Below, piece by piece: positions 7,417-42,495 of a DNA stretch of 64,000 nucleotides; the stretch's first letter is position 1; each line of letters begins with the position of its first letter. The stretch is from the IMG/VR virus record IMGVR_UViG_3300025133_000025. One strand, 5' to 3'. The position numbers and the translations under genes were made by a program. The notes beneath the pieces were generated by a model. The model was not told the origin of the DNA, made no database searches, and saw only the letters and a list, made by a program, of their open reading frames with translations. This DNA is from a virus. Lineage: Duplodnaviria > Heunggongvirae > Uroviricota > Caudoviricetes.

Positions 7417-8139
7417 ATGATTAAAGTTCTACATGCAAGCGATTTGCATGGATACTATTGGAATAAGCTGTGGGCAACTCCTGGACAAGATTTTGATCTT
7501 GTTCTGCTAACTGGAGACATGCTTCCAAATTGGCACCGGGGACCTGCGGGTGGCAAAGAGGGTGATAAGCAGAAAGCCTGGCTTCTTGAAAAAGATAAGC
7601 CAAAGCATGCGACCCATAGGCTTGGTATGGCCATGGAAGCCTTTGGTGATGTTCCTATTGTTGTTGTTGATGGCAACCATGATTTCTTCTGCCTGGGCGA
7701 CTTTATGCTTGAGCAGGGGTATGAAAATGTGTATCCCATCAAGCGCGGAATTGTGCATGAATTGCTAGGCCATCGAATCACCGGCTTTCCCAATATCAAT
7801 TGGATTGCAGGCGAGTGGGCTCATGAAACACGAGCGCCAGAACTCGCTGAATTGTGTGAAGAATTGCTGGCGCAGCACCCAACATTGATTGCCAATCATG
7901 CGCCATTGTCTGGGTATCTTGATAATGGTTATGGTATTCGAGCCATGCCACACTTGCTCCATTATCGGCAGTCTGATTGGGTGCAGTACTATTTCCACGG
8001 CCATGTGCACGAGCATGGTGGAAAAACTACGTATGCTGAGCTAGGCGGTCTGGAAGATGTCGACACGTTTGTTGTTCAGATCTTCAACGGAGCAACAACA
8101 GTAAAGATTCATGAGATTGAAGAAGGTCCGTTCGTATGA
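7417..8139 (+). CDS. calcineurin-like metallophosphoesterase
   Basis: IKVLHASDLHG ... LTGDM ... VVVDGNHDFF motifs; start taken at internal ATG just after the upstream stop. Confidence 0.7.
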   Translation: MIKVLHASDLHGYYWNKLWATPGQDFDLVLLTGDMLPNWHRGPAGGKEGDKQKAWLLEKDKPKHATHRLGMAMEAFGDVPIVVVDGNHDFFCLGDFMLEQGYENVYPIKRGIVHELLGHRITGFPNINWIAGEWAHETRAPELAELCEELLAQHPTLIANHAPLSGYLDNGYGIRAMPHLLHYRQSDWVQYYFHGHVHEHGGKTTYAELGGLEDVDTFVVQIFNGATTVKIHEIEEGPFV

Positions 8140-8354
8140 TTAACATTGGAGACGTTTGGGTACTCAGCGATGGCTCCCGTTTTGTTGTTCAAGGATTTGA
8201 AGACAGTGGTGACGTCGTCATCGGTGTGATGTTTTCAAATTTGGGAATTACGCTTCGAGCTGAAAAGATCCTTGCTATCGAACTGAAGGACCCAGCGCTG
8301 CTTCTTATTCGCGGTGGTTGTCCTGAGCCAATGAAGGCGATTATTTCCGCATAA
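8136..8354 (+). CDS. hypothetical protein
   Basis: ORF track 72 aa, overlapping start. Confidence 0.4.
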   Translation: MINIGDVWVLSDGSRFVVQGFEDSGDVVIGVMFSNLGITLRAEKILAIELKDPALLLIRGGCPEPMKAIISA

Positions 8355-8445
8355 CATACAACGAATTATAATATAAAAGAACAGGGGTTACGGTGAATTT
8401 GTTGCCGTGAAATCCAAACTAGGCCTGACACGAAAGGAACTTCAA

Positions 8446-8871
8446 ATGTCTGGCAATAAGAGTGAGAACACGTCCGCTCCGAGTATCACCCCCACGCGCA
8501 AGTCGCGTTGGAGTGGCCGCTCGGCTACCAACACCAGTCACCTGCAGAACATGCTGCGTGGCGGAGATGTTGAGTACTTCACCGCTGTTAGCGAAGGCTT
8601 TGGTCTCGCTGCTGGCGGTGACATCGAGGCTGCTGTCTCGTCGCTCGGGGACTTCCTTCCCGAAGGCGCAATCGGCTTCATCACGGCTACCAACTCCCGT
8701 CAGTCGAAGGCGGAGGTTGCTGCCGCGGCCAGCTCGGAAGCACGATCTGACATGATTCGCAAGATGTTCTCGTCGAACGTCCTCGCGGGTGCAATTGCTG
8801 CTGGCGTGGTTACCGATGATGAGGCGAAGGCTGCCCTCGATGATGAGCAGTACGCCAGCCTGCAGGCTTAA
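8446..8871 (+). CDS. hypothetical protein, paralog of 1583..1981; somewhat GC-enriched
   Basis: GAAAGGAAC RBS; paralogy noted above; hairpin downstream. Confidence 0.6.
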   Translation: MSGNKSENTSAPSITPTRKSRWSGRSATNTSHLQNMLRGGDVEYFTAVSEGFGLAAGGDIEAAVSSLGDFLPEGAIGFITATNSRQSKAEVAAAASSEARSDMIRKMFSSNVLAGAIAAGVVTDDEAKAALDDEQYASLQA

Positions 8872-8883
8872 TAAACCTGCGTA

Positions 8884-8906
8884 AATAACTACTGCATGGT
8901 AGTTAT
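8884..8906 (+). terminator. hairpin AATAACTAC-TGCATG-GTAGTTAT
   Basis: 8-bp stem right after the 8871 stop; no T-tract. Confidence 0.35.
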
Positions 8907-9044
8907 GGGGCTCCAGGGAAGACGCAGGGTACTGGAGAAGACCAGCGAAGGAATGTGGTAAGAGCGAACCTCTTACCCGGGAACGTTGGACAGGAACGTG
9001 AAATTCGTTCATCCCTTCAAAACAATCAACTTTGAGAGATACAA

Positions 9045-9410
9045 ATGACTCCAGCAGAATGGGCAGAGCAGAAGAGGTTGCAGAAGCGTGCAAAGACGCG
9101 GCGTGAAGATTTCACTCCCAATCCGTCCAAGCGCTTTGTTGCCAACCTTGATCGTGAGCTTGAGGAGGCTGTGCAGCTTGCTGAGGCTGGCGGCCCGTGG
9201 TTTGTGGCCATGGAAGTGCTGGAGCGGCGAGCTGCGCTCATGCAGCATCAAACGTTTCAGATCGTGAATGTCACCAACGATGATGGCACGAACGAACAGG
9301 ACATCATCATTCATGCAGACCATGACGACATCGATATCGGTGCGTTCTTCGGTCGCATGAGCGCAGCGAAGAACCGCGATGGCCAAGGACAAGAAGAAGC
9401 AGGCGCGTAA
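9045..9410 (+). CDS. hypothetical protein 121 aa
   Basis: ORF track; a 59-aa basic ORF in another frame overlaps its 3' end. Confidence 0.45.
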   Translation: MTPAEWAEQKRLQKRAKTRREDFTPNPSKRFVANLDRELEEAVQLAEAGGPWFVAMEVLERRAALMQHQTFQIVNVTNDDGTNEQDIIIHADHDDIDIGAFFGRMSAAKNRDGQGQEEAGA

Positions 9411-9541
9411 GATCGCCGCCGGCGCCAGGCGTGAAGTAACCATTCGTGAGGGTGGAATTTACGCCTGGCGTGGGCGTGCTATTCGTTTCAAGAATAAGCG
9501 CAAAGAGGCACAGCGAAATCACTGCCGACGAAAGGTAAGAA

Positions 9542-9985
9542 GTGATGACCAAGATTGAGTGGGAGAAGCTACTGGCTAATCCTTCGCTTCGAACTGACCC
9601 ACTTCCTGGCCCTGAGGCTGGACGAATTTGGGTTATGACTAGCCGGCCAGCGAGCCGGGAGCCGGAGCTTCTTGAATGCGCGTGGAACAATAACAACGAG
9701 CAGAATACATCATCTTGGCCACCATATTGGGGTGACAGTGCGGAGCCGATGTGGTGCGTTGATTACGCAGGCGCGGAAGGTCACAAGTGGTTTGCTGTAA
9801 ATCCTCTGGCACCAGTCATTAATGCAGATGATTGCAATAGAATTTTCTGTGAGTGGGAGTCTGGGTCGTTCATTAGTGCACGTCATCCAGATTTCCAAAG
9901 AGACTTTAACAGGCTTGTAGCTAAGTATGGGCCGCCTGACACTGTTGAATTCAGAGCGCGCAATGAGGGATGGATTCGAGAATGA
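9542..9985 (+). CDS. hypothetical protein 147 aa
   Basis: ORF track. Confidence 0.5.
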   Translation: MMTKIEWEKLLANPSLRTDPLPGPEAGRIWVMTSRPASREPELLECAWNNNNEQNTSSWPPYWGDSAEPMWCVDYAGAEGHKWFAVNPLAPVINADDCNRIFCEWESGSFISARHPDFQRDFNRLVAKYGPPDTVEFRARNEGWIRE

Positions 9986-10536
9986 TTATTTGCCCAGACA
10001 CTGAAATTGAAGAGCTGGCCGGCGGAGTTTACGACTGGACACCTGAGCGAGCTAGTGAGGCCTGGCAACGCAGTTACCAGAAGCTCGGCGCAGCACTTGT
10101 TGCTTGCGACCCCATGAACACCACATTCATTGTTATGGTTGGTTTGCCCGGGAGCGGGAAGAGCACCTTCTCCAGCTGGTATGACGCGAGCAACGCGACC
10201 TCGCCGAGATCGGCCATCATCTTTGATGCAACCAACGTCGCGCCAATGCGCCGAAGTGCTATGCTCAATGTTGCGATCGGCGCTGGGCTCAAAACAGCTG
10301 CAATCTATGTGCAGTGCAACGTGCAGGTTTCATTGGCCCGGCAAGCAGCTCGGGGCCGAAAGGCAATCAGTGGAGACGTCATCCGACGCATGGACAAGCA
10401 ACTGCGTAAGCCCACTGTTAACGAAGGCTTTGGCGCAATCATTGATGTTGTCACAGTTGAACCACACCCGCGTGACAACAGGGGATGGATTGAAATTAGC
10501 GTAAGTGATCGGTCATTCTGGTGCATTGGAGAGTAA
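9970..10536 (+). CDS. P-loop polynucleotide 5'-kinase-like protein (T4 Pnkp kinase-domain-like)
   Basis: Walker A VMVGLPGSGKSTF; sits directly before the RNA ligase gene. Confidence 0.6.
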   Translation: MDSRMIICPDTEIEELAGGVYDWTPERASEAWQRSYQKLGAALVACDPMNTTFIVMVGLPGSGKSTFSSWYDASNATSPRSAIIFDATNVAPMRRSAMLNVAIGAGLKTAAIYVQCNVQVSLARQAARGRKAISGDVIRRMDKQLRKPTVNEGFGAIIDVVTVEPHPRDNRGWIEISVSDRSFWCIGE

Positions 10537-10537
10537 G

Positions 10538-11719
10538 ATGCTCAACATCGAAGACTTTCGTGCTGCAGCTGAGCAGGGCAGCATCCGGCGCACTGCAAAG
10601 AATGAATACGAGCTATTCAACTACACCAGTGAAACTGCAAATAGTCGACTGTGGAATGAAATCACGCTTGAAGCGCGAGGGGTTGTGTTCCATCGTGGCA
10701 AGATTGTTTGCCGCCCGATGCGCAAGTTCTTCAATAGTCACGAGCCTGGTGCTGACTTTGTTGACGGGCTCTACACACCAGAAGTTCTGCTCAAGAAGCT
10801 TGACGGCACGCTGATTAATTTGTGGTGTGACCTTGATGGTGTACTAAATGTATCAACTCGCGGCAGTCTCGACAACGAATACATTGACGGAGCTTGGGAG
10901 CTAATCAAGCAGAACAGGATTGATAGCGCCATCGCCGCGCACTTCCCAGTAAGCTTCGGTGGTGGAACGTTCAGCTTTGAATACACCTATCCGCAGCTGC
11001 GCTTCGGCAATTCAAGTGTTGTCCCTCATGAGAATGAACGACTGTCGCTTCTCAATATTCGCATGCGAAATGGGTGTGAATATAATGCAGCCAAGATCGA
11101 CCGCTTCGGGGCTGAATTGTACGGCGAAGATGCATTCACGCTTTCACAGAAGCGCTATAGTATTGCAACAAATGTCAGCAACCCCAGTATTCCAGAGGCT
11201 GTAGAACAAGCGCTGCTATTGCCGTATACTGACGAGGGGTGGGTCGTTAGCGCATACGACCATAAGCTGCTGCGTAACATTCGCGTAAAGATTAAGGGTG
11301 CGCAGTATATTGCAATGCATCGAGTTGTTCATGGTATGACCCCACGGTCTGTTGCTGACGCATGGTACGCCGGAGTGACTGATGAACTTCTTGATATGCT
11401 GCTTGAACCGCACAAGAACCAGTTGGCCGAAGCGTTCAAGCCGTATGATGAATTGCTAGCAACTGCAACATCAGTCACGCAGGATTGGGTAGAAAATTAT
11501 CTGGCCGACTCTGAAGAGTTTACTGGTGGGACTGGCTTCGAAAGACGTGAGTTTGTCCTGGACGCGCAGCGTGACATTCCGAATCACTGGCAGTTCGCAA
11601 TTCAGGAATACTACAGTGACTCTGATCCTGACTACAAGAAGTGGGTTGTTCGAAAGCTCAATAACGGTAAGGCACCCCGAGCGTGGGAATTGCCTGTAAC
11701 TGACGATGTGAAGGAGTAG
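10538..11719 (+). CDS. RNA ligase, Rnl1 family (copy 1)
   Basis: nucleotidyltransferase motif I KKLDGTL preceded by RKFFN, as in T4 Rnl1; GGAGAG RBS; start at internal ATG abutting the kinase stop. Confidence 0.7.
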   Translation: MLNIEDFRAAAEQGSIRRTAKNEYELFNYTSETANSRLWNEITLEARGVVFHRGKIVCRPMRKFFNSHEPGADFVDGLYTPEVLLKKLDGTLINLWCDLDGVLNVSTRGSLDNEYIDGAWELIKQNRIDSAIAAHFPVSFGGGTFSFEYTYPQLRFGNSSVVPHENERLSLLNIRMRNGCEYNAAKIDRFGAELYGEDAFTLSQKRYSIATNVSNPSIPEAVEQALLLPYTDEGWVVSAYDHKLLRNIRVKIKGAQYIAMHRVVHGMTPRSVADAWYAGVTDELLDMLLEPHKNQLAEAFKPYDELLATATSVTQDWVENYLADSEEFTGGTGFERREFVLDAQRDIPNHWQFAIQEYYSDSDPDYKKWVVRKLNNGKAPRAWELPVTDDVKE

Positions 11720-16034: not shown

Positions 16035-16892
16035 TCAACCGATGATTTCTTTAATCTTACGCTCAACTCGAACAAACTTACCATCAATGCAGTAGCCATC
16101 ACGGGGACCCCATGGTTCTGCATGCGCAGCCAAGGCCTCCACACTGATGAAGCAACCATCAGGGTCATCGTCAGTGTATACAATACACGACAACTGATCT
16201 CCGAAAACGCAGCCTGTATCCACGCCTCTGGCGAATGGAAACACTGCTGGTCCCTTGAATGGCTGGTGTCCAAAGACTGCAGTTCCGAACCGCCCGTCGT
16301 ACACTTCTGCCCAGTAGGAATCTTCAGGCCCTTCTTTTCCAAGCATCACGGGCATACCCTTGCTTCCGCTGATGAAACGCGTCCAACAGAGCGTTCCAAA
16401 GAACTTCTTGGTTTTTCCTGCAAGTGTAATGAATGGTGCAGTGACTTCTGTACCGATGTTCTGCATTGCTGCTGGAATGCCGGCGTGAATGACGATCAAT
16501 TCCCACTCAGGAATCCTGATGGCGAGAGGAAGACTGCAAAGGAATGCATAGTGATCCGCAGTCAGGAGCTCGTTGATTTCAACAAACCCGCCTGTACCAG
16601 ACACTGGACTTCCGCGCCTGGACTTCCGCATCGGATTGTTCTTGGGACCCTTTTCAATGTCATGCTTCTTGAAGCGCCGGTGCTTGTCTTCATGGTTGCC
16701 CATGACAACGTCATAGCCCTTCTCAATGACATAGTCAAGCAGTTCAATCTGCTTCGGCCCCTTGTCAAGAAGATCCCCGACAAAGACACGGCGGATGCCA
16801 CCTGGGAACTGCCTGTCGAGCTCTGCTTCCAGTGCAAGGAGCTCATCAAAGCAACCGTGAATGTCACCAATAATTGCTACAGGTTCCGGCAT
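16035..16892 (-). CDS. Ser/Thr protein phosphatase (lambda PPase / ApaH-like metallophosphatase)
   Basis: GDIHGC ... GDLLDKGP ... GNHE motifs. Confidence 0.75.
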   Translation of the reverse strand: MPEPVAIIGDIHGCFDELLALEAELDRQFPGGIRRVFVGDLLDKGPKQIELLDYVIEKGYDVVMGNHEDKHRRFKKHDIEKGPKNNPMRKSRRGSPVSGTGGFVEINELLTADHYAFLCSLPLAIRIPEWELIVIHAGIPAAMQNIGTEVTAPFITLAGKTKKFFGTLCWTRFISGSKGMPVMLGKEGPEDSYWAEVYDGRFGTAVFGHQPFKGPAVFPFARGVDTGCVFGDQLSCIVYTDDDPDGCFISVEALAAHAEPWGPRDGYCIDGKFVRVERKIKEIIG

Positions 16893-18519: not shown

Positions 18520-19098
18520 TCAAGTTCGCCAAGCCCGAGCATTCTCTCTATCTAGCTGCGCAAGGTGCTCAAGCCCAAGATCGTATTGAGCCTCATACAT
18601 GCGCCACAAAGAGTCAACATTCGTATCGTACGAAGGTGAATGCTTCGAAGCATTCAAGGCGAGCATAAACGATTCTCTCTCACCCAAATACATGGAAAAT
18701 TTGTCAACCTTTCCACGCTTAAGAATTGACCCAACACTGGCCTTGACATTTGCAATTCTGTCAGCCAGCTTTACAATCACAGCATTTTCAACACTTGCTG
18801 TTTTTGGATACGTGTTCTGGTGCCGCTCTTTTCGAGTTTCACCCGGGCCGTCAGAGACTGCCCAGACAAGCTGGGCAATTTGCCAACCAAACAACTCTTC
18901 GATATCCTGCACAGTATCGCTTGTGTCTTCAATGTTGTCATGGAGAATTACTGCAATTCTCAGCGTCTTTTCCATGATCCCAACAGAGACAAGCACATCA
19001 TGCGCATCACGAAGGTGCTTCAAATATGAAAAATCTCCATACAGCACACCATCGAATTTGTCTTCTGCATGCTTCCAAGCTTTGCTAATTCTATCCAT
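18520..19098 (-). CDS. HD-domain phosphohydrolase
   Basis: H ... HDNIEDT ... D metal-binding signature. Confidence 0.6.
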   Translation of the reverse strand: MDRISKAWKHAEDKFDGVLYGDFSYLKHLRDAHDVLVSVGIMEKTLRIAVILHDNIEDTSDTVQDIEELFGWQIAQLVWAVSDGPGETRKERHQNTYPKTASVENAVIVKLADRIANVKASVGSILKRGKVDKFSMYLGERESFMLALNASKHSPSYDTNVDSLWRMYEAQYDLGLEHLAQLDRENARAWRT

Positions 19099-22052: not shown

Positions 22053-22268
22053 TTACTCTCCAGTGTACCTGACACTCTCGATTGTGATCTCTTCGTCTTC
22101 AGAGCCCCAAGTGACAGAATCAGCATCACTTTCAACAATTTCACGAAGCACTTCCTCCAGCGAGCTAGCCACTTCCCCGACAGCCCACTGTGACATGCCC
22201 TTAATTGAAAGCGTTACTTCACTTTCTTGTTCAAGAACTCTTTTAATCTTTACGCTAAATTCAGCCAT
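22053..22268 (-). CDS. acidic hypothetical protein
   Basis: ORF track 71 aa. Confidence 0.45.
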   Translation of the reverse strand: MAEFSVKIKRVLEQESEVTLSIKGMSQWAVGEVASSLEEVLREIVESDADSVTWGSEDEEITIESVRYTGE

Positions 22269-22305
22269 GTTCTCTTCTCCAGTATTGTTATCAGCACCTA
22301 TGAAT

Positions 22306-22381
22306 GGTACGCCCGGCAGGACTCGAACCTGCGACCTGCGGATTAGGAATCCGCTGCTCTATCCAGCTGAGCTACGGGCGT
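22306..22381 (-). tRNA. tRNA-Arg (anticodon CCT), CCA encoded
   Basis: manual fold: acceptor ACGCCCG/CGGGCGT, anticodon stem GCGGA/TCCGC, loop TTCCTAA. Confidence 0.75.
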
Positions 22382-22391
22382 ATTTTAAATG

Positions 22392-22547
22392 AAGGGCCAG
22401 CAGGATTCGAACCTGCATCCCAGCCAGTGATTTCTCACTACGCTTGTGTTGCAATGCAAACAACCAAATTCACCTTGCAGCACATGGTTTCTAGCGCAAG
22501 CATGAGCATCATTCCCGGCCGTATTCTACCACTTGAACTATGGTCCT
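22392..22547 (-). tRNA. tRNA-like gene of about 156 nt with about 90-nt insertion in the anticodon loop (intron-containing tRNA or disrupted tRNA)
   Basis: canonical acceptor (AGGACCA/TGGCCCT), D arm (GTTC-AAGTGGTAG-AAT), T arm (GCAGG-TTCGAAT-CCTGC) and anticodon stem CGGCC/GGCTG flank an insert; no CCA. Confidence 0.5.
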
Positions 22548-22554
22548 ATAAGCT

Positions 22555-22803
22555 TTAATCCCAGCAGGCGTCGCCGACCAACACAACAGCAGGGCCAACG
22601 ATTGGCTGCCCAGCAATGAACGAAGCCTCAGGATTTCCCGGCAATCCCTTCAGAAGACCTTCTTCATCAATAAGCATCTGTGTCTTATCACCATCAACTG
22701 GTGCAAGCTCAATCAATTGAACGTATCCACCGACAAGCTTCTGAGCAACTACAAGACTTGGCTTGTTCTTTTTGCCGCTCAGTAGTGTTACACTATCATT
22801 CAT
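22555..22803 (-). CDS. hypothetical protein
   Basis: ORF track 82 aa. Confidence 0.45.
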   Translation of the reverse strand: MNDSVTLLSGKKNKPSLVVAQKLVGGYVQLIELAPVDGDKTQMLIDEEGLLKGLPGNPEASFIAGQPIVGPAVVLVGDACWD

Positions 22804-22820
22804 GATTTCTCCTTAGTTAA

Positions 22821-22908
22821 TGGTGGGGCAGGGAAGAGTCGAACTTCCGGGCTGCATACACAGAAGGGATTTACAATCCCCACCCGCCCCCTACGGGTCT
22901 ACCGCCCC
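22821..22908 (-). tRNA. tRNA-Tyr (anticodon GTA), type II with long variable arm, CCA encoded
   Basis: manual fold: acceptor GGGGCGG/CTGCCCC, loop TTGTAAA, T arm GGAAG-TTCGACT-CTTCC. Confidence 0.7.
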
Positions 22909-22916
22909 AATTTCAG

Positions 22917-23075
22917 TTAAGCTGCGATGACGAAGCCTGATTCAATCATCGCTTCTGCGAAGGCCCAGGCTGTCATCAGTGCAAATGCAACCTTGATAAT
23001 CAAGTTTGTCCAACCATCCCTTGACCAGATGGTTGTCATAAACAGAAAAACGATCGTGGCAACAGTCTCAAACAT
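22917..23075 (-). CDS. small membrane protein (52 aa, MFETVATIVFLFMTTIW...)
   Basis: below track cutoff; GGAGATTGAGTA-ATG coupling to the upstream stop; hydrophobic. Confidence 0.35.
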   Translation of the reverse strand: MFETVATIVFLFMTTIWSRDGWTNLIIKVAFALMTAWAFAEAMIESGFVIAA

Positions 23076-24891: not shown

Positions 24892-24988
24892 TTCAGTGAA
24901 ATGGCGGAGAGACAGGGATTCGAACCCTGACAGGGCGTTAGCCCCTAACAGTTTTCAAGACTGCAGTCGATACCCAGAATCTTTCGAC
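24892..24988 (-). tRNA. tRNA-Ser (anticodon TGA), type II, enlarged D region, CCA encoded
   Basis: manual fold: acceptor GGAGAGG/TCTCTCC, loop CTTGAAA, variable arm GGGGC-TAA-GCCCC, T arm CAGGG-TTCGAAT-CCCTG; 97 nt. Confidence 0.65.
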
Positions 24989-25000
24989 TTACCTCTCCAT

Positions 25001-26344: not shown

Positions 26345-26572
26345 TTAGTTCTTCACAGATCGATAGCCAGCAGTCCTTGCATTCTTCTCAGTTTCAAAAC
26401 ACCATTCTGCAACTGTCTGCCAGTAGTAACCACTTTCCGTTGTATGATACACCATAGATTCAAAGTTTCCCTTGATGGGAAACTCCTTTGTACAATGGCC
26501 CTTTGTATCTGGAAGATGAGCACACCCTGACAAAAGTAGGAGCATAGTGAGTGTGATAAAAAGCTTCTTCAT
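26345..26572 (-). CDS. lipoprotein
   Basis: internal Met MKKLFITLTMLLLLSGC with lipobox. Confidence 0.5.
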   Translation of the reverse strand: MKKLFITLTMLLLLSGCAHLPDTKGHCTKEFPIKGNFESMVYHTTESGYYWQTVAEWCFETEKNARTAGYRSVKN

Positions 26573-26593: not shown

Positions 26594-26673
26594 TGGTTGG
26601 GTTGGATGGATTTGAACCATCGTGCAACCGGCTACCCTTTCAACTGCTTATCAGGCGGAGGGGATACAACCCA
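26594..26673 (-). tRNA. tRNA-like element or degenerate tRNA, identity unresolved
   Basis: clear T arm GATGG-TTCAAAT-CCATC, acceptor TGGGTTG/CAACCCA and CCA, but no canonical D or anticodon arms could be folded by hand. Confidence 0.3.
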
Positions 26674-34964: not shown

Positions 34965-35935
34965 TTCAGCATTCCCCTAAAGTGCTCCAAATACATCGAC
35001 TCGGCACGATCAAAGATATCTTGCCTGTTTGGCGATGCAGGAAGAGAACTGGCTGTCATTGCATATTCAAGCTCACTCAGGCGCTCATCGATCATCTCTG
35101 CAACTTCATCAAACGGAAGCTCGCCTTTTCTGATTTGGAGAAGCAGCTCAGCATTTGGCCTGGGGAGTGTAAGATTTGCTGTGTTCGCAAGTTCAATTCC
35201 CTGGTCGGCAACCCTGTAGGCATGCATCAGTGCTTTCCAATCTTGGCCTCCAGCACTTGCCCGGGTGCGCTTGCCATAAGCTTTTTCAACGCTTCGAAGA
35301 ACGCCCAGGCTGTATTCAACTGTAGTGCTGAAGGGGAGATATCGGCTGCTGATTACAATCGCTTTGTCTTGAAACCTGCCGTCTCCATGACTCATGTCTA
35401 CAATATCGAAGTATGGTTCAGTCACGTCAGCCATCTGCTCTAGGTTGGCCGGATCAGATGCGAATTCATTGATTCGCATCTCTCCATCAAATTCTGTGAG
35501 AAATGAGATTGCCTCAACAATGGCGTCAAATCTGGCACCCTTCACACAGTACTTATTGGCCTGTGACTTACAGTAACCTGCAATCGATTCCATTCCTCTG
35601 CTTAGAAACTCTTCACGAGTGCCAACAAGATATTCCCAGTGTTGTGATGTTTCAAGTACCTTATCAGCTGGGGCCCACAACATCTCAAGAGCCATTGTTT
35701 GGGAATCAAGCGCTAGCGCAATGAACTTTCCAAGCTCAAAGAGCTCCATATCAAGTTCACCAGGCTGGATTCTAGCTGTCCCTTTCACATTACGCTTAAC
35801 AGAACGCTTCGGATTGAGAGCCATTTCACGAAATGTTGGGAAAAAGACTCCCTTAAGGTCAAGATCAGACGATGGAATGTTTGTGCCATACAGTTGAGAG
35901 CCATGCACAATCCGCACAATTGTTTTATTCACCAT
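34961..35935 (-). CDS. Pol-beta-superfamily nucleotidyltransferase
   Basis: HGSQLYGTNIPSSDLDLKGVF (GS ... D.D NTase fold motif). Confidence 0.55.
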   Translation of the reverse strand: MVNKTIVRIVHGSQLYGTNIPSSDLDLKGVFFPTFREMALNPKRSVKRNVKGTARIQPGELDMELFELGKFIALALDSQTMALEMLWAPADKVLETSQHWEYLVGTREEFLSRGMESIAGYCKSQANKYCVKGARFDAIVEAISFLTEFDGEMRINEFASDPANLEQMADVTEPYFDIVDMSHGDGRFQDKAIVISSRYLPFSTTVEYSLGVLRSVEKAYGKRTRASAGGQDWKALMHAYRVADQGIELANTANLTLPRPNAELLLQIRKGELPFDEVAEMIDERLSELEYAMTASSLPASPNRQDIFDRAESMYLEHFRGMLK

Positions 35936-36307
35936 TCAGTAGTCTCCGTCACAGAGCACAATTGCCTTAGGTTGATCAGCTGTGATCAACTTCAATGTAT
36001 AGTCTGGGCTATAAAGACTGTACTTCTTCAATTCTTTATCCAGAATTGAGCGTGCTTCTTTCTTAGAAGACGCAAGTACAATCGACGCAATACCTGTTGG
36101 AAACAAACCTAGGTGGTCAGTGCATGAATACAAATTCAATGCTGGCGACCCTCTATAGAGTTCTGGCTCAAATTCACCAGAAACTTCCCCCATTGAAACA
36201 CCCCACGCCCAACACCGCTTACAGACAGGCTGCTCTGCGACGAGCGTGCAAGATGGCATCTTACTACATACAAAACAATGGTTGAACAATAGCGCGCTGT
36301 TGCTCAT
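35936..36307 (-). CDS. Cys-rich hypothetical protein
   Basis: ORF track 123 aa. Confidence 0.4.
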   Translation of the reverse strand: MSNSALLFNHCFVCSKMPSCTLVAEQPVCKRCWAWGVSMGEVSGEFEPELYRGSPALNLYSCTDHLGLFPTGIASIVLASSKKEARSILDKELKKYSLYSPDYTLKLITADQPKAIVLCDGDY

Positions 36308-36323
36308 GCGAGTCTCCTAGAGC

Positions 36324-36581
36324 CTACCGTGCTGCCTGTTCGAATTCATCAGGGTAACAACCACTGATCATGAATTCTCTTTCATCAACATTGAGAAAGT
36401 GAAATGCATCCTGCATCATGGCTCCTTCAGCATATTCTGCCCAGCCTACCATAAACTGCGCCTCGGTGCAATTGAACACCATACTTCGCTCCTCAGGACC
36501 AAAGAACGGAAAAACTGCGTTGAACTGGATGACTGGAGAATCTGGACCATTGTGATTGATATTTGCGTTCTGAGCTTGCAT
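36324..36581 (-). CDS. hypothetical protein
   Basis: ORF track 85 aa. Confidence 0.4.
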   Translation of the reverse strand: MQAQNANINHNGPDSPVIQFNAVFPFFGPEERSMVFNCTEAQFMVGWAEYAEGAMMQDAFHFLNVDEREFMISGCYPDEFEQAAR

Positions 36582-36915
36582 GGTTTTCCTGTTTAAGTAT
36601 TGAAATTACACAACATTCACTACACCTATATTGTAACCTAAAGTAACAAGCGCAGAAAATAATGAGCCCTCAGCTCACCACGGTCTCCATTTGCCGCTGT
36701 CGGGTGACCAAATATAAACGCCTGGAATATCCTGTCTCGGAAGGAGGATACTTGCAACCAGTCCCTCTTCAACAAACCAGAAGATAAGTGCTGGGCCTAT
36801 CGGCCCATGCGTTTCAAGGCATTTGAAAACAAGCTCTTCGCAATTGAACATGCAGTCTTCATGCGTTGCTGCCTGAACATGGCGCCACAATGAAAAGACA
36901 ATTGCCCTGTATGCA

Positions 36916-37518
36916 TTAGGGAACAGTAAGCGTGTGAGCCTGTGTGATAAAGTGTGTATGACCACACCGTGTTCGTTCAAGTTCCCCAAGAACTTCTTCG
37001 GCGTCCTTGACATATTCTTCTTCGCCACCATCACTACCTCCGCCAAAATAACCATAGTCATCACGGACGAAGATTTCAATCTTCTCGTAATCTTCTGATA
37101 TATCAAGCCAGTCAGCGATCTCAAGATTGATTAATAGCCCCATTCCGTCAGCACATTCAAACTGCTGCCACCAATCTGGAAAATTAAGATCGATGTTAAG
37201 ATGTGAAATGATGAGTGCAGGATCACATACCAAGACGCGACCAGCCGGACCAGTTATCACATTCCCAACGTAACGTTCATCATTTGCAGTTAACCACTTG
37301 TTTGTGATGCGCTTAAACATTGTCACGTCTAGTATCGTTCCATCAACTTCATCTGCGTTGATTGATACCTGCAGCATACCACCAGGTTGAACCTGATAAA
37401 GTGTTGCTAGACCTAGTGCAAAGTCAGGAATTCTAAAGTCAACACCAACTGGCACGAGCGCAAGCTTTCCATGCTCAACTAAAACGTCACCATCAAAGAC
37501 TTCAACATCATCAAACAT
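36916..37518 (-). CDS. hypothetical protein 200 aa
   Basis: ORF track; the overlapping 36675..37124 frame is uncertain. Confidence 0.45.
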   Translation of the reverse strand: MFDDVEVFDGDVLVEHGKLALVPVGVDFRIPDFALGLATLYQVQPGGMLQVSINADEVDGTILDVTMFKRITNKWLTANDERYVGNVITGPAGRVLVCDPALIISHLNIDLNFPDWWQQFECADGMGLLINLEIADWLDISEDYEKIEIFVRDDYGYFGGGSDGGEEEYVKDAEEVLGELERTRCGHTHFITQAHTLTVP

Positions 37519-37530
37519 TGGCCAGATTTT

Positions 37531-37746
37531 CTAAAGTGCGCCTGCTGTGAAATGCTTCCTGATAAATCGCGAAATGGCCTTTGTCGGAGCATTGTCATTA
37601 AGTGGAATTCGCACTCTGGAGAATGACCGGGAACCTCGCTCTGCGCCCTTGTTCAGACGCCCGAGCCCGAGCTCCCATGCCACAGTTACAATTGGGTTGT
37701 TGTTCTCATCACGAATATACTGAACCCTCTGTCGTTTATCACTCAT
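37531..37746 (-). CDS. hypothetical protein (start at internal MSDKRQR)
   Basis: internal ATG coupled to the upstream stop. Confidence 0.4.
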   Translation of the reverse strand: MSDKRQRVQYIRDENNNPIVTVAWELGLGRLNKGAERGSRSFSRVRIPLNDNAPTKAISRFIRKHFTAGAL

Positions 37747-37747
37747 G

Positions 37748-37999
37748 TCATTTGTCCTTTCTTGGACTGTGCGCACGCGGGTTGATAGAAAAGTGCCGCT
37801 TATCAATAGAGAACAATTTTGAATCGTCCTTGTTGGTGTGCAGCTCGCGTGCTGTACTGTTTTCCTTAACAATTTTCTCAAGCTTCTTAAGAACATAAGG
37901 GTGGCTTGAAAAAACTGTTGCTCCCTCTTCCCAATCTGAAACAACAATGGTTGTTTCACGCTCTGACGTTGGTTTTGGAATAACTGCTCTAAATTTCAT
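37748..37999 (-). CDS. hypothetical protein, tandem paralog A
   Basis: shares IDKRH.S.N ... SPR C-terminal motif with the next gene. Confidence 0.45.
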   Translation of the reverse strand: MKFRAVIPKPTSERETTIVVSDWEEGATVFSSHPYVLKKLEKIVKENSTARELHTNKDDSKLFSIDKRHFSINPRAHSPRKDK

Positions 38000-38250
38000 T
38001 ACTGCCTCGGTGAGTAAGCTTTTTCGTTCAGTGAGATATGACGCTTGTCAATAGCACACTCAACAAAATCACTTCCGTCAAAAACCATGCGCCCTGTATC
38101 GCCCTCACAAATCTGTCGTAGCAAACGCATAACAGGCAACTGCGTAGATGAAACATACGCATACTCTTGCGCATCGTGAATTGTAATCACTGTCTCTTGA
38201 TCAGAGGATGGCTTGAACTTATTTTGTAATTTCATACTGCAAGTACGCAA
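37999..38250 (-). CDS. hypothetical protein, tandem paralog B
   Basis: paralogy with 37748..37999. Confidence 0.45.
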   Translation of the reverse strand: MRTCSMKLQNKFKPSSDQETVITIHDAQEYAYVSSTQLPVMRLLRQICEGDTGRMVFDGSDFVECAIDKRHISLNEKAYSPRQ

Positions 38251-39851
38251 TCTCTAATACCACACATACATGTATTAGTTTCATAGTCATCTGTGAAATG
38301 TGCAACAGCCGAATCAAATTCAGCGTCGGGCAGGTCCTCGGGATCCGGCACGGGCCATTCCATATCTGCTTGTGAGAATTTTGTATCAACAGCAACCAGC
38401 CCAGGCTCAGTGATATCAACATCTTCACCAGCTGTAGACATGGACCACAGCTTCTGCGTTTCATCAAAGATCTGCATGTAGATGGCGCGCTGTCGAGCCA
38501 GTGCACGAAACTTTACCATGAACAATTTCGGACCCAACACAGTCAGTGTCTTGACGAGCTCTGCAATGTCTGCAGGCGTCATTCCAGCGCCATTCTTGCA
38601 AACGTAATCTGTAATCTGCGCGTAATCACTACCAACAATTGATTTGCTCGTGTCAGTGCTATACAGATCGAGATAGTAATCAAGAACGATCTTGCGCCCA
38701 TTCGCGTCAGGCGCAGGAACATAGACAAGCTCGTCAAACCGACCTGGGCGCAAGCCTGCCCTATCAAACTTTGTAATGTCGTTGACAGTTGCAACAGTAA
38801 TTACAGGGCTCAATCTCTTTGGGAGCCACTCAAGCATCTGAAGGAGGGCCCTGTTGTCCACATCATATCTATCAAAGTCATCGAACACAACCACATTCGG
38901 GGCAAGCATTGCCAGGATTTCGGGCCCTGTTCCGTTCGTCTTTCTAAAGAAGCTTGGCTTCAAAATTACGCAGCGGCCGCTCAGGTGATTGTTGATCACG
39001 CGTGTGAGAGTCGTCTTGCCAACCCCAGGTGGGCCCAGCAGCATGATTGATCTAGAAAAGCCAGCCTCCATGAAGAGACTCGTATCTTCAGCAACCTGCT
39101 CAACTTCAGCCAGCGTTCCGCCAAGTCCAATATAGTTCTTGACGTCGTTCTCAGCGTTGATGATTGGTCGATCACCATGGTAGGTTGCCTGGAAATCGAT
39201 CTCTACAACAGACGAGCCATAGAAATCCCAAAATGCCTTTGTCAACCAATCGTTGAATCGTTTTCGCGATATCCCCATGTCAGAATCATCAGAATCTTTG
39301 ATATGAAAGTATGGCCCGCTTGACCAGCGCAGCAATTCCTCATCAGAATCTTCATGCGCCTCACCGGAGCGAGTGGCGGCGGTATTCTTCCTTCTGCCGA
39401 CCTCGTATTTCACAGCAAAGTAATCAACAGTTCCTTCAAACTCGTATGTGAAAGCAATGACCTCCGTTGCCAGGATTTGTCCTTCTGCATTCTTGATCTT
39501 GATTCGCTCACGCTTCAGGCCCTTAACGCAAGGGATGAGGATTTCACGAACAAGCTCGGCGCCTGCTCTATCCTCTGTCAGCATGTAGCAGTCGTTATCT
39601 TCAAGCCACAAGTCAACATGGTCAATGTCTTCTTCAATTTCGTAATCGTCAGTATTCTCAATCGACTCGCGGTACTGCTTGACAGCATCTGCGATATCAA
39701 ATCCTGCGTCGAGCTTTGAAAGCAGACCTTTTCTCGGCTGGACAAGCGAACGCACAACTTGCTTCAGCGGAATAAAGAAACCCGGAAGCGCAGTATTAGT
39801 TTTTCCCAAGCGTCCAAGATAACGCTCAAAATCTTCTTCTTCCCAAAACAT
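38232..39851 (-). CDS. AAA+ ATPase
   Basis: Walker A LLGPPGVGKTTL, Walker B VVFDDFD, arginine-finger region RPGRFD. Confidence 0.7.
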   Translation of the reverse strand: MFWEEEDFERYLGRLGKTNTALPGFFIPLKQVVRSLVQPRKGLLSKLDAGFDIADAVKQYRESIENTDDYEIEEDIDHVDLWLEDNDCYMLTEDRAGAELVREILIPCVKGLKRERIKIKNAEGQILATEVIAFTYEFEGTVDYFAVKYEVGRRKNTAATRSGEAHEDSDEELLRWSSGPYFHIKDSDDSDMGISRKRFNDWLTKAFWDFYGSSVVEIDFQATYHGDRPIINAENDVKNYIGLGGTLAEVEQVAEDTSLFMEAGFSRSIMLLGPPGVGKTTLTRVINNHLSGRCVILKPSFFRKTNGTGPEILAMLAPNVVVFDDFDRYDVDNRALLQMLEWLPKRLSPVITVATVNDITKFDRAGLRPGRFDELVYVPAPDANGRKIVLDYYLDLYSTDTSKSIVGSDYAQITDYVCKNGAGMTPADIAELVKTLTVLGPKLFMVKFRALARQRAIYMQIFDETQKLWSMSTAGEDVDITEPGLVAVDTKFSQADMEWPVPDPEDLPDAEFDSAVAHFTDDYETNTCMCGIRDCVLAV

Positions 39852-39855
39852 CGTG

Positions 39856-40077
39856 TTATCGCCCCAGCTTCATCCTGAAATAATCAAGCGGTTCATAATC
39901 CCGCCCGCGCGCTGACACTTTTACAAGCGTCTCAACACCATCAATAACCCTATAGTGAAAAACATCTCCTTTCTTTGTCGTTCGTTTTTGACCTGCAATA
40001 CCGATTGCACGAGTCTTACTACGCTTAACAACAGCTTTTCGATTTGCTGCTGCTGGATTATCATGGTCGCTACGCAT
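39856..40077 (-). CDS. small basic protein
   Basis: ORF track 73 aa; promoter motif upstream. Confidence 0.45.
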   Translation of the reverse strand: MRSDHDNPAAANRKAVVKRSKTRAIGIAGQKRTTKKGDVFHYRVIDGVETLVKVSARGRDYEPLDYFRMKLGR

Positions 40078-40104
40078 TTATAAACCTTTCATTCCTGTTA
40101 CCTT

Positions 40105-40134
40105 TATTGTAACAACAAGTTTTCTTCACGGAAT
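40105..40134 (-). promoter_or_regulatory. phage promoter motif (ATTCCG-N14-TGTTACAAT)
   Basis: conserved architecture. Confidence 0.4.
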
Positions 40135-40376
40135 CAAATAATGTCGTTGCTCAACATTTTGTAGATCTCAGGTGTTAGTGTGAGAACTTTAATCTTAAAA
40201 CGATCTGGGTCAGTCTTTACCTTGGCATCATTCTTTTGCAGCACGTTTAGCATGCCCATTGCAGTTTCCTTATCTTTAAAGACAACAGGCCTACCAGTTT
40301 TTACGTCAGAGAGTACAGGATTATAGTAACCCTTGCTATCAATAATTACAAACCGCGCTTCAGGCTTCGCTTTCAA
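40134..40376 (-). CDS. hypothetical protein
   Basis: ORF track 80 aa. Confidence 0.4.
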   Translation of the reverse strand: MKAKPEARFVIIDSKGYYNPVLSDVKTGRPVVFKDKETAMGMLNVLQKNDAKVKTDPDRFKIKVLTLTPEIYKMLSNDII

Positions 40377-41011
40377 AGCTTACCTTTCTCTAGACGAACG
40401 CCTCCAGCTGTTCCTATCCTAGATGCTTTGCCAATAAGCTTTACGCTCCGGCCTTTCTGCAAAAAGACACTCTTGTCGAATGATGATGCTCTTGCAGATT
40501 TTGATTTGCCGCGCGGCATATTCCAATCATTCGGTCCAATCGCAAGCGCAGTTGCTGAGAAAACAGTGCTGTCGCCGCGGGCTGTAAGAATGTAATTTAC
40601 TGGCCTTGTTAGATGGTCCTTTCTCATTAGAGCCACTGTATTTGTAATCCAATTTGGCGTGCGCTGCCCTGTAATCTTTACTTCTAAGACCATGCTTCTA
40701 TTATCGTTGTCTGTAAAAACGAAATCCCCTCCAGCACCAAGAGCATCAGCGCCAACGTCTTCCAACAAACCTAATGAATTCAGTGTGATGTGTGTTGACA
40801 TTGCCTTGAACAAAACTTTCTCCCAGGCAATTCCCATGATCCCGCCTAATTCACGCGGTTCAAGTTGAGTTGAGAGATATTTCTTTGATGCCCGCCCGAA
40901 GGATGCAAAAAAGCGATCATACTCACTAACGGCCGCAACTATTACGTCACGCGTAAGGATCTGCTTGACCAGCCTTCTATTCCACCTTCTTGTTTCTCTG
41001 TTAAAGCGCAT
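40373..41011 (-). CDS. hypothetical protein (possible PD-(D/E)xK nuclease: GDFVFTDNDNRSMVLEVK)
   Basis: ORF track 212 aa; motif match is weak. Confidence 0.45.
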   Translation of the reverse strand: MRFNRETRRWNRRLVKQILTRDVIVAAVSEYDRFFASFGRASKKYLSTQLEPRELGGIMGIAWEKVLFKAMSTHITLNSLGLLEDVGADALGAGGDFVFTDNDNRSMVLEVKITGQRTPNWITNTVALMRKDHLTRPVNYILTARGDSTVFSATALAIGPNDWNMPRGKSKSARASSFDKSVFLQKGRSVKLIGKASRIGTAGGVRLEKGKL

Positions 41012-41362
41012 TTATGCATCCCAGCTGCAATAACCCATGACACGCTCAGGGTAAAGCACGTTTCCACCATTTACTTCGCTAACAGCATCTTCAATCCAGC
41101 GCATTCCATACGCTAGACGAGGCACAGCAAACTTTGCAATGTCACCACTTGCAATTGCAAAAAAGACGTCATTGCGTCCGCCAGGGCCAGTCTCATCTGG
41201 AAGTGTTCTAATCTCTTCAAGATATTGTACAGTGACGCCAAATTCAGTTTCGGCCCAACTCTCAAATGCTGTTGAATTACTTGGTTCAACAAGCGTCGCT
41301 GGCCAAATTACAACCTGGACAAAACCCTCGTCAAGCTTTACATTTTCCATTTTCTCATTCTC
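41012..41362 (-). CDS. hypothetical protein (start trimmed to internal Met)
   Basis: ORF track; overlap with the next gene resolved by the internal start. Confidence 0.35.
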   Translation of the reverse strand, partial: ENEKMENVKLDEGFVQVVIWPATLVEPSNSTAFESWAETEFGVTVQYLEEIRTLPDETGPGGRNDVFFAIASGDIAKFAVPRLAYGMRWIEDAVSEVNGGNVLYPERVMGYCSWDA

Positions 41363-41675
41363 CATTATCAATACGGCACTCTCTGTCACCGCAATAAAGT
41401 GAAAGATACTGAATGGTGCGGTATGGCGGATGGCCATTTAGCACTGTTGCATTGCACCACGTCGGCGGACTATAGCAAACCACACCATAGGTGAAACCAT
41501 CTTCATGCGGAAACTCTTCACTCAAAAAGATTCCCGCGCGCTGCTCCGTTGCCGCTGTTCCTGTTGGAAATATTTCTGCAGCATTAAACCCAGGCCCAAT
41601 TGCTACTAAAGCACCAACAATAACAAGCGCGCAGACAAGCGCAACGAAACTCAAATATTCATTCCACATTAACAT
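41355..41675 (-). CDS. membrane-anchored hypothetical protein
   Basis: N-terminal LSFVALVCALVIVGALVAIG anchor. Confidence 0.4.
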   Translation of the reverse strand: MLMWNEYLSFVALVCALVIVGALVAIGPGFNAAEIFPTGTAATEQRAGIFLSEEFPHEDGFTYGVVCYSPPTWCNATVLNGHPPYRTIQYLSLYCGDRECRIDNGE

Positions 41676-41696
41676 CTGTTTGCTCCAAGCCTGTGT

Positions 41697-42023
41697 TTAT
41701 TCATCTGCAAACCCGACTTTCTCGTATTCACCCCTTAGTCTAATAAGCCCATCACGCTCAAGCTTTGTTGAATATTGGCGGGTGATATCTTCTACTACAC
41801 CAATTGCTGCATGTGACATTGGACCTTGCCTGGCACAAATTAATGTGCAGCGTAATGATGCTTTGTGATCATCAAGCTCAGCAGCTATATTCTCACCTGC
41901 CATTGATATGTCATGACCAGTAATTACACGCAATTGATATTTGCAATTTGGCCTTCCATGGATATCGGGTATATTGCAGGGTACATCTTCACTTTCGTGT
42001 ACAATCGAGCAATTCAAACTCAT
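41697..42023 (-). CDS. hypothetical protein
   Basis: ORF track 108 aa. Confidence 0.4.
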   Translation of the reverse strand: MSLNCSIVHESEDVPCNIPDIHGRPNCKYQLRVITGHDISMAGENIAAELDDHKASLRCTLICARQGPMSHAAIGVVEDITRQYSTKLERDGLIRLRGEYEKVGFADE

Positions 42024-42495
42024 GCTCTAAATCTTTCTTCATTCGTGTGAAATTATCCAAAAGTCGCCCCATTGCTTCCGATGTGTGTGCTTCACTCAAC
42101 TTTGCTTCATGCTCAGCCATATTTTGAAAATAGTGTGGATCGTCTAGCGTCACACCAAATGGCCTGCCATCAAGATGTTGTTTTACATGCGTAAGCTCAT
42201 GTACTAATATTCTAATATACATGAGGACATCATCTCTCTTACCTTTTCTAGCAGCTGTATAGAACTTCCCGAGCACCTCAACATTCACTTGACCGTCACG
42301 CATTATACGTGTCATTCCTCTTGTACTGCTGTTTACGAAATGCTTAACAATGTTGATTGTTAATGGCGCATCTCCAATCAGGCGCTGCACAATATGTGCA
42401 GTAAGAGCTAGCAGAAAATTATTACGCTCATGTCTGAGCTTGATGTGTCGTGAGAAGATTCTAATGCTGCGTTGCTGCTGCAGCAAGCTTCTCAC
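41989..42495 (-). CDS. HExxH zinc metallopeptidase-like protein
   Basis: LVHELTHVKQH motif. Confidence 0.5.
   Translation of the reverse strand: MRSLLQQQRSIRIFSRHIKLRHERNNFLLALTAHIVQRLIGDAPLTINIVKHFVNSSTRGMTRIMRDGQVNVEVLGKFYTAARKGKRDDVLMYIRILVHELTHVKQHLDGRPFGVTLDDPHYFQNMAEHEAKLSEAHTSEAMGRLLDNFTRMKKDLEHEFELLDCTRK

Follow-up and report, generated by a model that had tools for sequence, protein, structure and literature searches.

An oversized tRNA-like gene with a hairpin rod in place of its anticodon loop in a phage tRNA array

What becomes of a tRNA gene when its anticodon loop is gone and the rest of the molecule is kept? The question is raised by a locus in the tailed-phage record IMGVR_UViG_3300025133_000025 (Caudoviricetes), of which a stretch of 64,000 nt, here called the window, was analysed: at positions 22392-22547 (minus strand), inside an array of tRNA genes, lies an element with a tRNA body in which 91 nt occupy the place of the anticodon loop. 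The original prediction, made from the letters alone, described a tRNA gene with an insertion, perhaps a mini-intron, in the anticodon loop; the structure so described is right, but no loop is left and no single excision restores one. The reading put forward here, tentatively and at somewhat under an even chance, is that the element encodes a tRNA mimic which does not take part in decoding. The element is an orphan within a poorly known kind, the oversized tRNA-like genes of phage tRNA clusters, and points to an under-annotated class; annotation keeps only what the standard tRNA finders accept.

The body of the element is that of a tRNA. The gene measures 155 nt from acceptor strand to acceptor strand, to which a discriminator U is added at 22392. 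The 5′ strand of the acceptor stem, AGGACCA (22547-22541), pairs with UGGCCCU (22399-22393) at six of seven positions, the one mismatch being A4·C69; U8 and A9 lead into the D-arm, GUUC-AAGUGGUA-GAAU (22538-22523), which is evident both from the sequence and from a constrained fold and which carries A14, A15, G18, G19 and A21. A26 stands at the junction with the anticodon stem, whose halves CGGCC (22521-22517) and GGCUG (22425-22421) form 5 bp with one G·U; the variable loop, GGAU (22417-22420), contributes U48, which pairs with A15, and the T-arm reads GCAGG-UUCGAAU-CCUGC (22416-22400). The acceptor stem with its single mismatch, the D-arm, the T-arm and the two stem halves had all been named in the original prediction and are indeed found, on the minus strand. 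No mismatch occurs in D-stem or T-stem, and the bases that build the elbow are canonical throughout (U8, A14, A15:U48, G18 G19, A21, G53:C61, U54 U55 C56, A58), so that a 7-bp acceptor, a D-arm, a T-loop of the type UUCRANY and the tertiary bases are all in place; what distinguishes a decoding tRNA is absent: instead of a 7-nt loop on the 5-bp stem, carrying U33 and a purine as base 37, there are the 91 nt.

The element is missed by ARAGORN in its default mode and by the tRNA model of Rfam, even at E ≤ 10; ARAGORN calls it in intron mode (22391-22547). A covariance model built from the element (R1; self-hit 190.7 bits), run over 1.77 Mb of phage DNA, picks up ordinary tRNAs at 30-48 bits, the long arm alone being deleted in the alignments, and because real tRNAs are aligned end to end, the body is a bona fide tRNA homolog. 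The element is not a chance match, as it sits in a tRNA array and its model recovers real tRNAs. Its identity elements for charging are ambiguous (U73, A1-U72, G3-C70 and no anticodon); A1-U72, the D-arm and the 4-nt variable loop resemble tRNA-Trp, while the best match of R1 is a phage tRNA-Gly(GCC), likewise with U73.

Between the halves of the anticodon stem, where about 90 nt had been counted beforehand, lie 91 nt (22516-22426, minus strand), of which blastn-short and nhmmer find no second copy in the 64-kb window. That the insert is structured had been recognised; however, it does not form separate small hairpins, but one long irregular hairpin of 37 bp which includes the anticodon stem and stands in place of the anticodon loop (22521-22421, minus strand). 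From its base upward this rod consists of a 7-bp helix (CGGCCGG/CUGGCUG), a 3-nt bulge (GAA), 4 bp (UGAU/AUCA) and a 1 × 2 internal loop, followed by 5 bp, a 3-nt bulge, 6 bp, the 8-nt bulge AGAAACCA and three helices of 4, 5 and 6 bp, which are separated by C·A and G·A mismatches. In the folds the GAA bulge (22512-22514, minus strand) occupies exactly tRNA positions 34-36, as the helix below it has 7 bp and pairs positions 27-33 with the 7 nt preceding the variable loop; the bases around it (G32 G33, U37) are unlike those of an anticodon loop. The folds also place the 8-nt bulge (22485-22492, minus strand) in the 5′ strand of the rod and an apical loop, UUGGUU, at 22462-22467 (minus strand); the two are complementary over 5 nt (AACCA/UGGUU), which might allow an alternative fold or pairing between molecules. 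One frame of the insert is open for 24 codons (22440-22514, minus strand; AUGAUG...GCG UAG UGA, peptide MMLMLALETMCCKVNLVVCIATQA); it is buried in the helix, the chance probability of such a length is about 0.3, and the frame is probably fortuitous.

The 101-nt arm (22521-22421) folds at -37 kcal/mol (z = -3.06), a value equalled by 1 of 200 dinucleotide shuffles, and when acceptor stem and T-arm are forced, the RNA adopts a full cloverleaf at -55.5 kcal/mol with the rod as its anticodon arm. An alternative fold as a type II tRNA of normal length was not borne out, there being no contiguous anticodon arm inside the insert. The rod folds at -37.0 kcal/mol in the sense orientation versus -24.3 kcal/mol for its reverse complement, and it contains seven G·U pairs versus a single C·A opposition (one-sided binomial p = 0.035); strand-biased folding and the excess of G·U therefore point to a rod that is maintained as a feature of the RNA.

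The design recurs in unrelated phage arrays. Eighty viral loci were collected by alignment to homologs of the major vault protein (MVP), a gene for which is also found in the window, and two more (L058 and L059) were added, giving 82 loci with 1.59 Mb; these were searched with ARAGORN in intron mode and with a custom detector. A candidate for the latter must enclose 100-260 nt within a 7-bp acceptor stem, show U8, a T-arm and a D-arm that contains GG, and be free of ordinary tRNAs in its interior. Eight more oversized tRNA-like genes were found among 335 tRNAs, and 26 phage loci which had been fetched for unrelated reasons gave, with the same detector, three among 211 tRNAs. Since the frequency in these control loci is about equal, oversized genes are not tied to MVP; they are a general feature of phage tRNA arrays, at a low frequency of about 1-3%. 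In two of them, L047:1610-1716 (minus strand) and L102:338-514 (plus strand), the expansion sits on the anticodon stem and no canonical loop is present, as in the window; in L124:22488-22629 it lies between D-arm and anticodon arm, and in L118 and in L102 expansions are found in the variable region.

How might such an RNA be made, and what might it do? The gene would be transcribed together with its neighboring genes and tRNAs, as no consensus for a promoter or a terminator is found on the minus strand between 21900 and 23500; a DUF3846 gene (22555-22803, minus strand) ends with its stop codon 7 nt upstream, and the tRNA-Arg(CCU) gene (22305-22381, minus strand), which begins 10 nt downstream, is probably on the same transcript. 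Enzymes of tRNA processing recognise the acceptor stem, the T-arm and the elbow, not the anticodon, and by way of these parts those of the host could excise the RNA, RNase P acting at the 5′ end and trimming at the 3′ end following, after which the CCA-adding enzyme would probably complete the 3′ end. The product, as judged from sequence and folding, should be an L-shaped tRNA whose anticodon stem is prolonged into a bulged rod of about 37 bp. With this geometry no anticodon could be presented in the ribosome, and the RNA would therefore have to act via proteins that read the upper half of a tRNA, for which the rod may offer a second binding surface. The present view of phage tRNA clusters is that they counter tRNA-cutting defence enzymes of bacteria, and the mimic might serve as a decoy for such enzymes of the host or as a scaffold or cofactor for tRNA-repair enzymes of the phage.

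The case for a non-decoding mimic is built from the complete tRNA body, the rod stacked coaxially on the stem, the single copy of the insert, the failure of any one excision to give a loop and the recurrence in L047 and L102. Of the three alternatives offered at first for the locus, namely a mini-intron or ribozyme, disruption of a tRNA by a small mobile or regulatory element, and a tRNA-like structure that serves another role, the last fits best. Comparable precedents can be named in T4 rnaC, in YrlA and in the predicted b7a-tRNA. The element shares with the T4 RNA (species 1) what defines that type, which is a descriptive class and not a family of homologs: it is oversized (156 nt; rnaC has 139 nt), lies in a phage tRNA cluster on the strand of the tRNAs, and combines a canonical T-arm (CCGGG-UUCGAAU-CCCGG in rnaC) and paired ends with long hairpins at the anticodon region (z = -4.6 in rnaC) and no anticodon loop. 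The two have no sequence similarity, however, and rnaC has an imperfect acceptor stem, no normal D-arm and two long hairpins, whereas the D-arm of the element is perfect and a single rod stands on its anticodon stem. To our knowledge the function of species 1 RNA is still a puzzle after some 50 years. In phage T4 (L033, 69000-74000) rnaC/rnaD and gene 57B, whose product is annotated in this record as an RNA ligase and may be the RlaP-family protein of T4, are about 3 kb apart in the tRNA cluster.

YrlA, the partner of bacterial Ro60 (Rsr), consists of a tRNA-like domain and a long bulged stem at the position of the anticodon stem (10.1101/312249). Like the element, it has an acceptor-like stem, a T-arm, a D-arm and tertiary contacts, and both are linked to RNA repair and degradation (10.1101/312249), but YrlA is permuted: its long stem carries the ends of the RNA at the tip, and a loop closes its acceptor, whereas in the element the acceptor is open and the rod closed. 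The Rfam model of YrlA (RF02553) gives 26.5 bits, versus a gathering score of 69, in an alignment spanning the T-arm of the element and the D-arm of the next tRNA, and this match was rejected as an artefact of tandem tRNAs. The b7a-tRNA was predicted by Burroughs and Aravind, according to the second-hand account in 10.1101/312249, as a noncoding RNA with a strong likeness to tRNA in genomes that combine a Band-7/SPFH protein with RNA ligases; the phage of the element has an MVP/Band-7 protein, RlaP and RNA ligases, but the b7a-tRNA is described as tRNA-sized and adjacent to the Band-7 gene, while the element is twice as long and 8 kb away.

Several results weigh against a functional mimic. The statistics for selection at the RNA level are modest, consisting of p = 0.035 and one z-score, and of the two architectural analogs a bias toward the sense strand is seen in L102 only. 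The element encodes no CCA end, although most tRNAs of the array do. No homologs were found, which leaves no test of covariation, and all copies are clonal: the phage is present in at least seven marine assemblies (copies of the element in six besides the source), with one difference in 5.3 kb, A59U in the T-loop of the element in assembly L015; as all copies are clonal, conservation is uninformative. Further, a link of the element to MVP/Band-7 was considered and is unsupported by the control frequency given above, the MVP gene lying 8 kb away. The gap that follows the MVP stop codon (30410-30644, minus strand) contains a very strong 15-bp hairpin (AAUGCCCUGCAUCC...GGAUGCAGGGCAUU) and a second hairpin (region z = -3.7), which are likely a terminator and not a tRNA-like RNA. 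A Ro60/TROVE protein was seen neither among about 30 proteins of the window nor among the called genes of L012, L017 and L141; about 115 kb of the phage genome lie outside the DNA covered by this search. Finally, the elements of L124 and L047 were each found only on their own contig in IMG/VR, and such singletons fit short-lived accidents as well as fast-evolving functional RNAs.

What a mimic could work with is suggested by the genes around it. RNA-repair genes form two groups in the window, at 7417-11719 (plus strand) and at 34961-43705 (minus strand). To the left of the array are genes for a metallophosphoesterase (7417-8139, plus), an AAA_33 P-loop kinase (about 9982-10536, plus), an Rnl1-like ligase (10538-11719, plus) and a second metallophosphoesterase (16035-16892), and a protein with an HD domain (HD_4) is encoded inside it (18520-19098); on the other side follow the MVP homolog with a Band-7/SPFH shoulder (30645-33287, minus), RlaP (34961-35935, minus), an AAA ATPase (38232-39851, minus) and a second Rnl1-like ligase (42461-43705, minus). 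Band-7/MVP, RlaP and the ligases are within 8-21 kb of the element, but not adjacent to it. Transfer RNAs with a break in the anticodon loop are the substrates of RlaP and Rnl1 (PMC12776372; PMC7824862), and the context is compatible with a cofactor or decoy of tRNA shape, though not proof of either.

A narrower form of the mimic reading, which we regard as improbable, makes the RNA a tRNA-shaped partner of this repair or vault-like machinery (MVP/Band-7, RlaP and the Rnl1 ligases). It would then be, again with little probability, a viral counterpart of Y RNA, of vault RNA or of the b7a-tRNA, itself never validated, the rod docking a protein and the tRNA head recruiting or imitating damaged tRNAs; that anticodon-less tRNA mimics form a wider and overlooked class in phage clusters, of which the element is an example, belongs to the same proposal and is likewise doubtful. 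Vault RNAs have paired ends, between which follow in order box A, similar to a D-arm, a central hairpin that varies, and box B, similar to a T-arm; their binding in eukaryotes requires TEP1, a TROVE protein. The element has its parts in the same order and its phage encodes an MVP homolog; on the other hand, the Rfam Vault family does not match it at E ≤ 10, no spatial or statistical link of the element to MVP emerged, and no protein of the TEP1 (TROVE) class was seen among the phage proteins scanned. The MVP of the window, a true homolog, is 44-48% identical to MVPs of metagenome-assembled genomes of Myxococcales. Homologs of MVP occur in 256 viral contigs of IMG/VR, many from phages of 100-450 kb, and 38 of the 82 MVP loci that were fetched have tRNAs within 10 kb (nine or more at 16 of those 38).

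Among the rivals to a non-decoding mimic, the one that survives best is a relic: a formerly normal tRNA gene whose anticodon loop was replaced or expanded by a hairpin-forming insertion, whose product is inert or no longer made and which is on its way to being lost. This is unlikely, but it accounts for a good deal. The insert is without homolog in all collections searched: its exact pattern has no match in IMG/VR, the R1 scan did not find it in 1.77 Mb of other phage DNA, and when the region and its masked body were compared by blastn with 50,697 phage records, the only matches were generic ones to tRNA arms. Gapped patterns of D-arm and T-loop returned pairs of adjacent tRNAs only; the 5′ half of the body is absent from the viral and genome collections, and the 3′ half occurs in tRNAs for Gln, Lys, Met and Ile and is not diagnostic. 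Clonal copies, the missing CCA and several other irregular tRNA-like genes in the array would suit a gene in decay, as would the fact that comparable genes elsewhere are singletons with nonhomologous inserts at varied positions, as expected of sporadic accidents. Against decay, all 53 base pairs and the bases for tertiary contacts of the body are intact, and the insert is non-random, its 37-bp rod prolonging the stem without leftover loop bases. Seven G·U pairs versus one C·A, together with an antisense fold weaker by 12.7 kcal/mol, would not be expected of a decaying DNA palindrome; no donor element for the single-copy insert is in view; and phage genomes are compact and tend to shed dead DNA.

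Could the 91 nt instead be removed from the RNA? In this explanation, which we judge distinctly unlikely, proteins would excise the insert or most of it (RNase III of the host, for instance, or a different endonuclease that attacks the rod), and the halves would be rejoined by the Rnl1-type ligase of the phage, with RlaP and the kinase/phosphatase healing the ends, to give a working tRNA with an unusual loop. The phage does encode the tools (two Rnl1-like ligases, RlaP, the AAA_33 kinase and the phosphoesterases), ARAGORN accepts the element in intron mode, the trinucleotide at 34-36 is exactly GAA, and the array lacks tRNAs for Phe, Trp, Gly, Cys, Asp and Glu. Opposed to this is the outcome of an excision test that covered every single excision leaving a stem of 5 bp and a loop of 7 nt, whether N26 was present or not and for variable loops of 3-5 nt: none yields both U33 and a purine at 37, the best score being 6.0 of 8.5. 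The solution of ARAGORN, “Val CAC” (loop CUCACUG), needs a shifted stem with an A·G pair, no N26, a 3-nt variable loop and U37; the register implied by the original prediction leaves the loop AAUCACU, that is, UCA with A33 and C37; and splicing at the canonical position 37/38 leaves GGGAAUU, with G32 G33 and U37. A product with joined halves (5-35 nt between them) was not found in the metagenome collection, but this negative weighs little, since a positive-control pattern was likewise without hits and known JGI contigs were not returned from the same collection.

Known classes of intron do not help this explanation. Group I introns have a conserved catalytic core (P3-P9) and a length of about 200 nt or more, and the original prediction was correct in holding the insert too short for one; at 91 nt it is far below the size of known self-splicing introns, and a permissive Rfam scan (22250-22950, E ≤ 10) gave no match to group I or group II introns, to hammerhead, twister, pistol, hatchet or HDV-like ribozymes or to any other self-cleaving ribozyme, which leaves the mini-intron or ribozyme suggested earlier with poor support. 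A segment UGAUG...GAAA resembles the hammerhead core, but C3 and A9 are missing and the arms pair with each other; a kink-turn was discarded on reading the sequence, as no G·A pairs stand at the right place, and a box C/D RNA because no D box lies beside the stem and no C/D family of Rfam matches inside the element.

The archaeal bulge-helix-bulge (BHB) motif consists of a 4-bp helix between two 3-nt bulges, in which, read 5′ to 3′, the helix precedes the bulge on each strand (PMC4090602), and its helix contains the first two anticodon bases (PMC4090602). The rod shows the reversed polarity at its base, where GAA on one strand and AA on the other come before the 4-bp helix UGAU/AUCA, and its second bulge has 2 nt opposite 1; an intron of BHB type was rejected. 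No domain like that of the splicing endonuclease EndA is found among the scanned phage proteins. The archaeal tRNA-Trp intron, which is of BHB type and has a box C/D RNA nested in it, shares with the element a Trp-like body, a comparable size of the insert, a base made of a helix, a 3-nt bulge, a 4-bp helix and a further bulge, and an AUGAUG that resembles box C; it differs in the order of the bulges and in its box D, for no CUGA stands beside the stem of the element, and in that the host here is bacterial. Archaeal tRNA-Trp introns have a median length of 65 nt and reach about 100 nt. The host of the phage is assigned to the bacteria on sequence grounds, because the tRNA-Tyr of the array is of type II (88 nt, with a long variable arm), a bacterial trait, and because the phage encodes a DNA PolIII alpha of bacterial type; we know of no protein-based tRNA splicing in bacteria. 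Bacterial rRNA intervening sequences resemble the element in that a long extra hairpin replaces a terminal loop of a conserved structural RNA and continues its helix, and such hairpins are substrates of RNase III; however, rRNA works in pieces without the loop, whereas a tRNA without its anticodon loop cannot decode.

Support for removal of the insert also comes from another phage. When 72 nt after position 31 are taken out of L124:22488-22629 (plus strand; IMGVR_UViG_3300015263_000944), a perfect tRNA-Trp(CCA) results, with the arm ACCUU-UUCCAAG-GGGGU and a score of 8.5 in the excision test; it is the sole surveyed oversized gene that becomes perfect on excision, and genuinely interrupted tRNA genes would therefore exist in such phages. 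No other locus surveyed is as good a candidate for a tRNA gene of a bacterial virus that is truly interrupted. It has in common with the window element a Trp-like D-arm, the T-loop, the 3-nt variable loop (in the frame of ARAGORN), U73 and the lack of CCA, but its insert carries a hairpin of its own, capped by UUCG, does not align with that of the window and matches no Rfam family. Introns called “enigmatic” have been reported in tRNA genes of Lak megaphages (PMC6784885); like the window element, these genes are missed by callers in bacterial mode and interrupted in the anticodon region, with no known mechanism of splicing (PMC6784885). As they were defined with tRNAscan in eukaryotic mode, however, their loop is normal after removal, whereas the element is left with none, and L124:22488 is the better counterpart to them.

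That a small mobile element, palindromic or similar to miniature inverted-repeat transposable elements, was inserted into the tRNA gene, as also proposed at first, is very unlikely. The insert is near-palindromic as DNA and is placed precisely in a tRNA gene, a common target of mobile DNA; but such elements exist in multiple copies and their hairpins are equal on both strands, whereas here neither the 64 kb nor the 1.77 Mb of other phage DNA hold a second copy, the hairpin relies on its seven G·U pairs and is much weaker on the opposite strand, and terminal inverted repeats and a target duplication are not evident.

A miniature rescue RNA similar to transfer-messenger RNA (tmRNA), with charged tRNA-like ends and the 24-codon frame as the template of a tag, is hardly credible and already largely refuted: although the frame ends in two stop codons, the tRNA-like ends are joined by a long helix and a neighboring gene for 75 amino acids carries the precomputed label “ArfC”, the tmRNA search of ARAGORN came back empty, the Rfam tmRNA model covers the 17-nt T-arm only (9 bits), the acceptor has G3:C70 in place of the G3·U70 needed for charging with alanine and the discriminator is U, not A, the D-stem is complete, pseudoknots are absent, the frame lies in a stable helix and its peptide lacks the end of a degradation tag. 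The label itself (26345-26572, minus strand) is doubtful, as hmmscan did not reproduce it and gave a sub-threshold lipoprotein signal (LPAM_1) alone.

If the mimic reading is taken up again and set beside the other arrays, the element and about a dozen others suggest that some 1-3% of the genes in phage tRNA clusters are tRNA-shaped and either non-decoding or dependent on a processing not yet known. Should they be true mimics, they would add a new layer to the conflict over tRNAs, as decoys for nucleases or as cofactors of repair, and species 1 RNA of T4 would no longer be without company; should some be truly spliced, for which L124 is the best candidate, a protein-dependent splicing of tRNA would operate in a bacterial system, where it is not known to exist; and should they be relics, they would record a recurrent way in which tRNA genes die. 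Oversized tRNA-like genes (100-190 nt) were also seen at L118:2411-2596, L100:7310-7497, L091:5515-5679, L126:6078-6236, L124:8563-8671 and 8675-8799, L001:10206-10334 and L003:3351-3473, all on the plus strand; in these, as in L047 and L102, the acceptor, D- and T-arms are intact and the expansions are structured and variously placed. The two adjacent genes of L124 have a hairpin motif in common, GGYAGCAAUGYCG, and L003 has an arm CAGGA-AACUAAG-UCCUG, with CUA and A33.

The array itself extends on one strand from 17.6 to 27.7 kb and comprises, apart from the element, 15 tRNAs called by ARAGORN and one called by Rfam only. In the related locus L030 the MVP and ligase genes are adjacent, whereas in the window about 10 kb of tRNA array lie between them; judged by this gene order, the array is a lineage-specific accessory region. 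Relatives of the DUF3846 protein (53-58% identity) are not syntenic with it, those of an ATP-dependent ligase-like protein (43-48% identity) have no tRNA array nearby, and the nearest relative of the MVP (73% identity) is on a contig of 4 kb; intermediate relatives were not found in the protein database, nor was a cultured relative.

Four further genes of the array, all on the minus strand, are irregular. At 24897-24999 lies a cleanly folding type II tRNA which is missed by ARAGORN and at the gathering threshold of Rfam; its anticodon loop reads CUUGAAA (UGA, Ser), its variable arm is long, a GCCA end is encoded, and its D-arm is unusual in having a stem of 6 bp and a 13-nt loop. Directly behind the tRNA-Met gene, at about 26596-26673, a tRNA-like gene has the acceptor stem UGGGUUG/CAACCCA, the T-arm GAUGG-UUCAAAU-CCAUC and an encoded A-CCA end, and its middle does not fold into D- and anticodon arms. 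The tRNA found by Rfam only (26764-26836, 45 bits) has a degenerate T-loop, and the “tRNA-Leu(gag)” of ARAGORN (27662-27737, z = -3.5) is not of type II, has an 8-bp acceptor stem and carries the loop AAGAGAU, with A32 A33.

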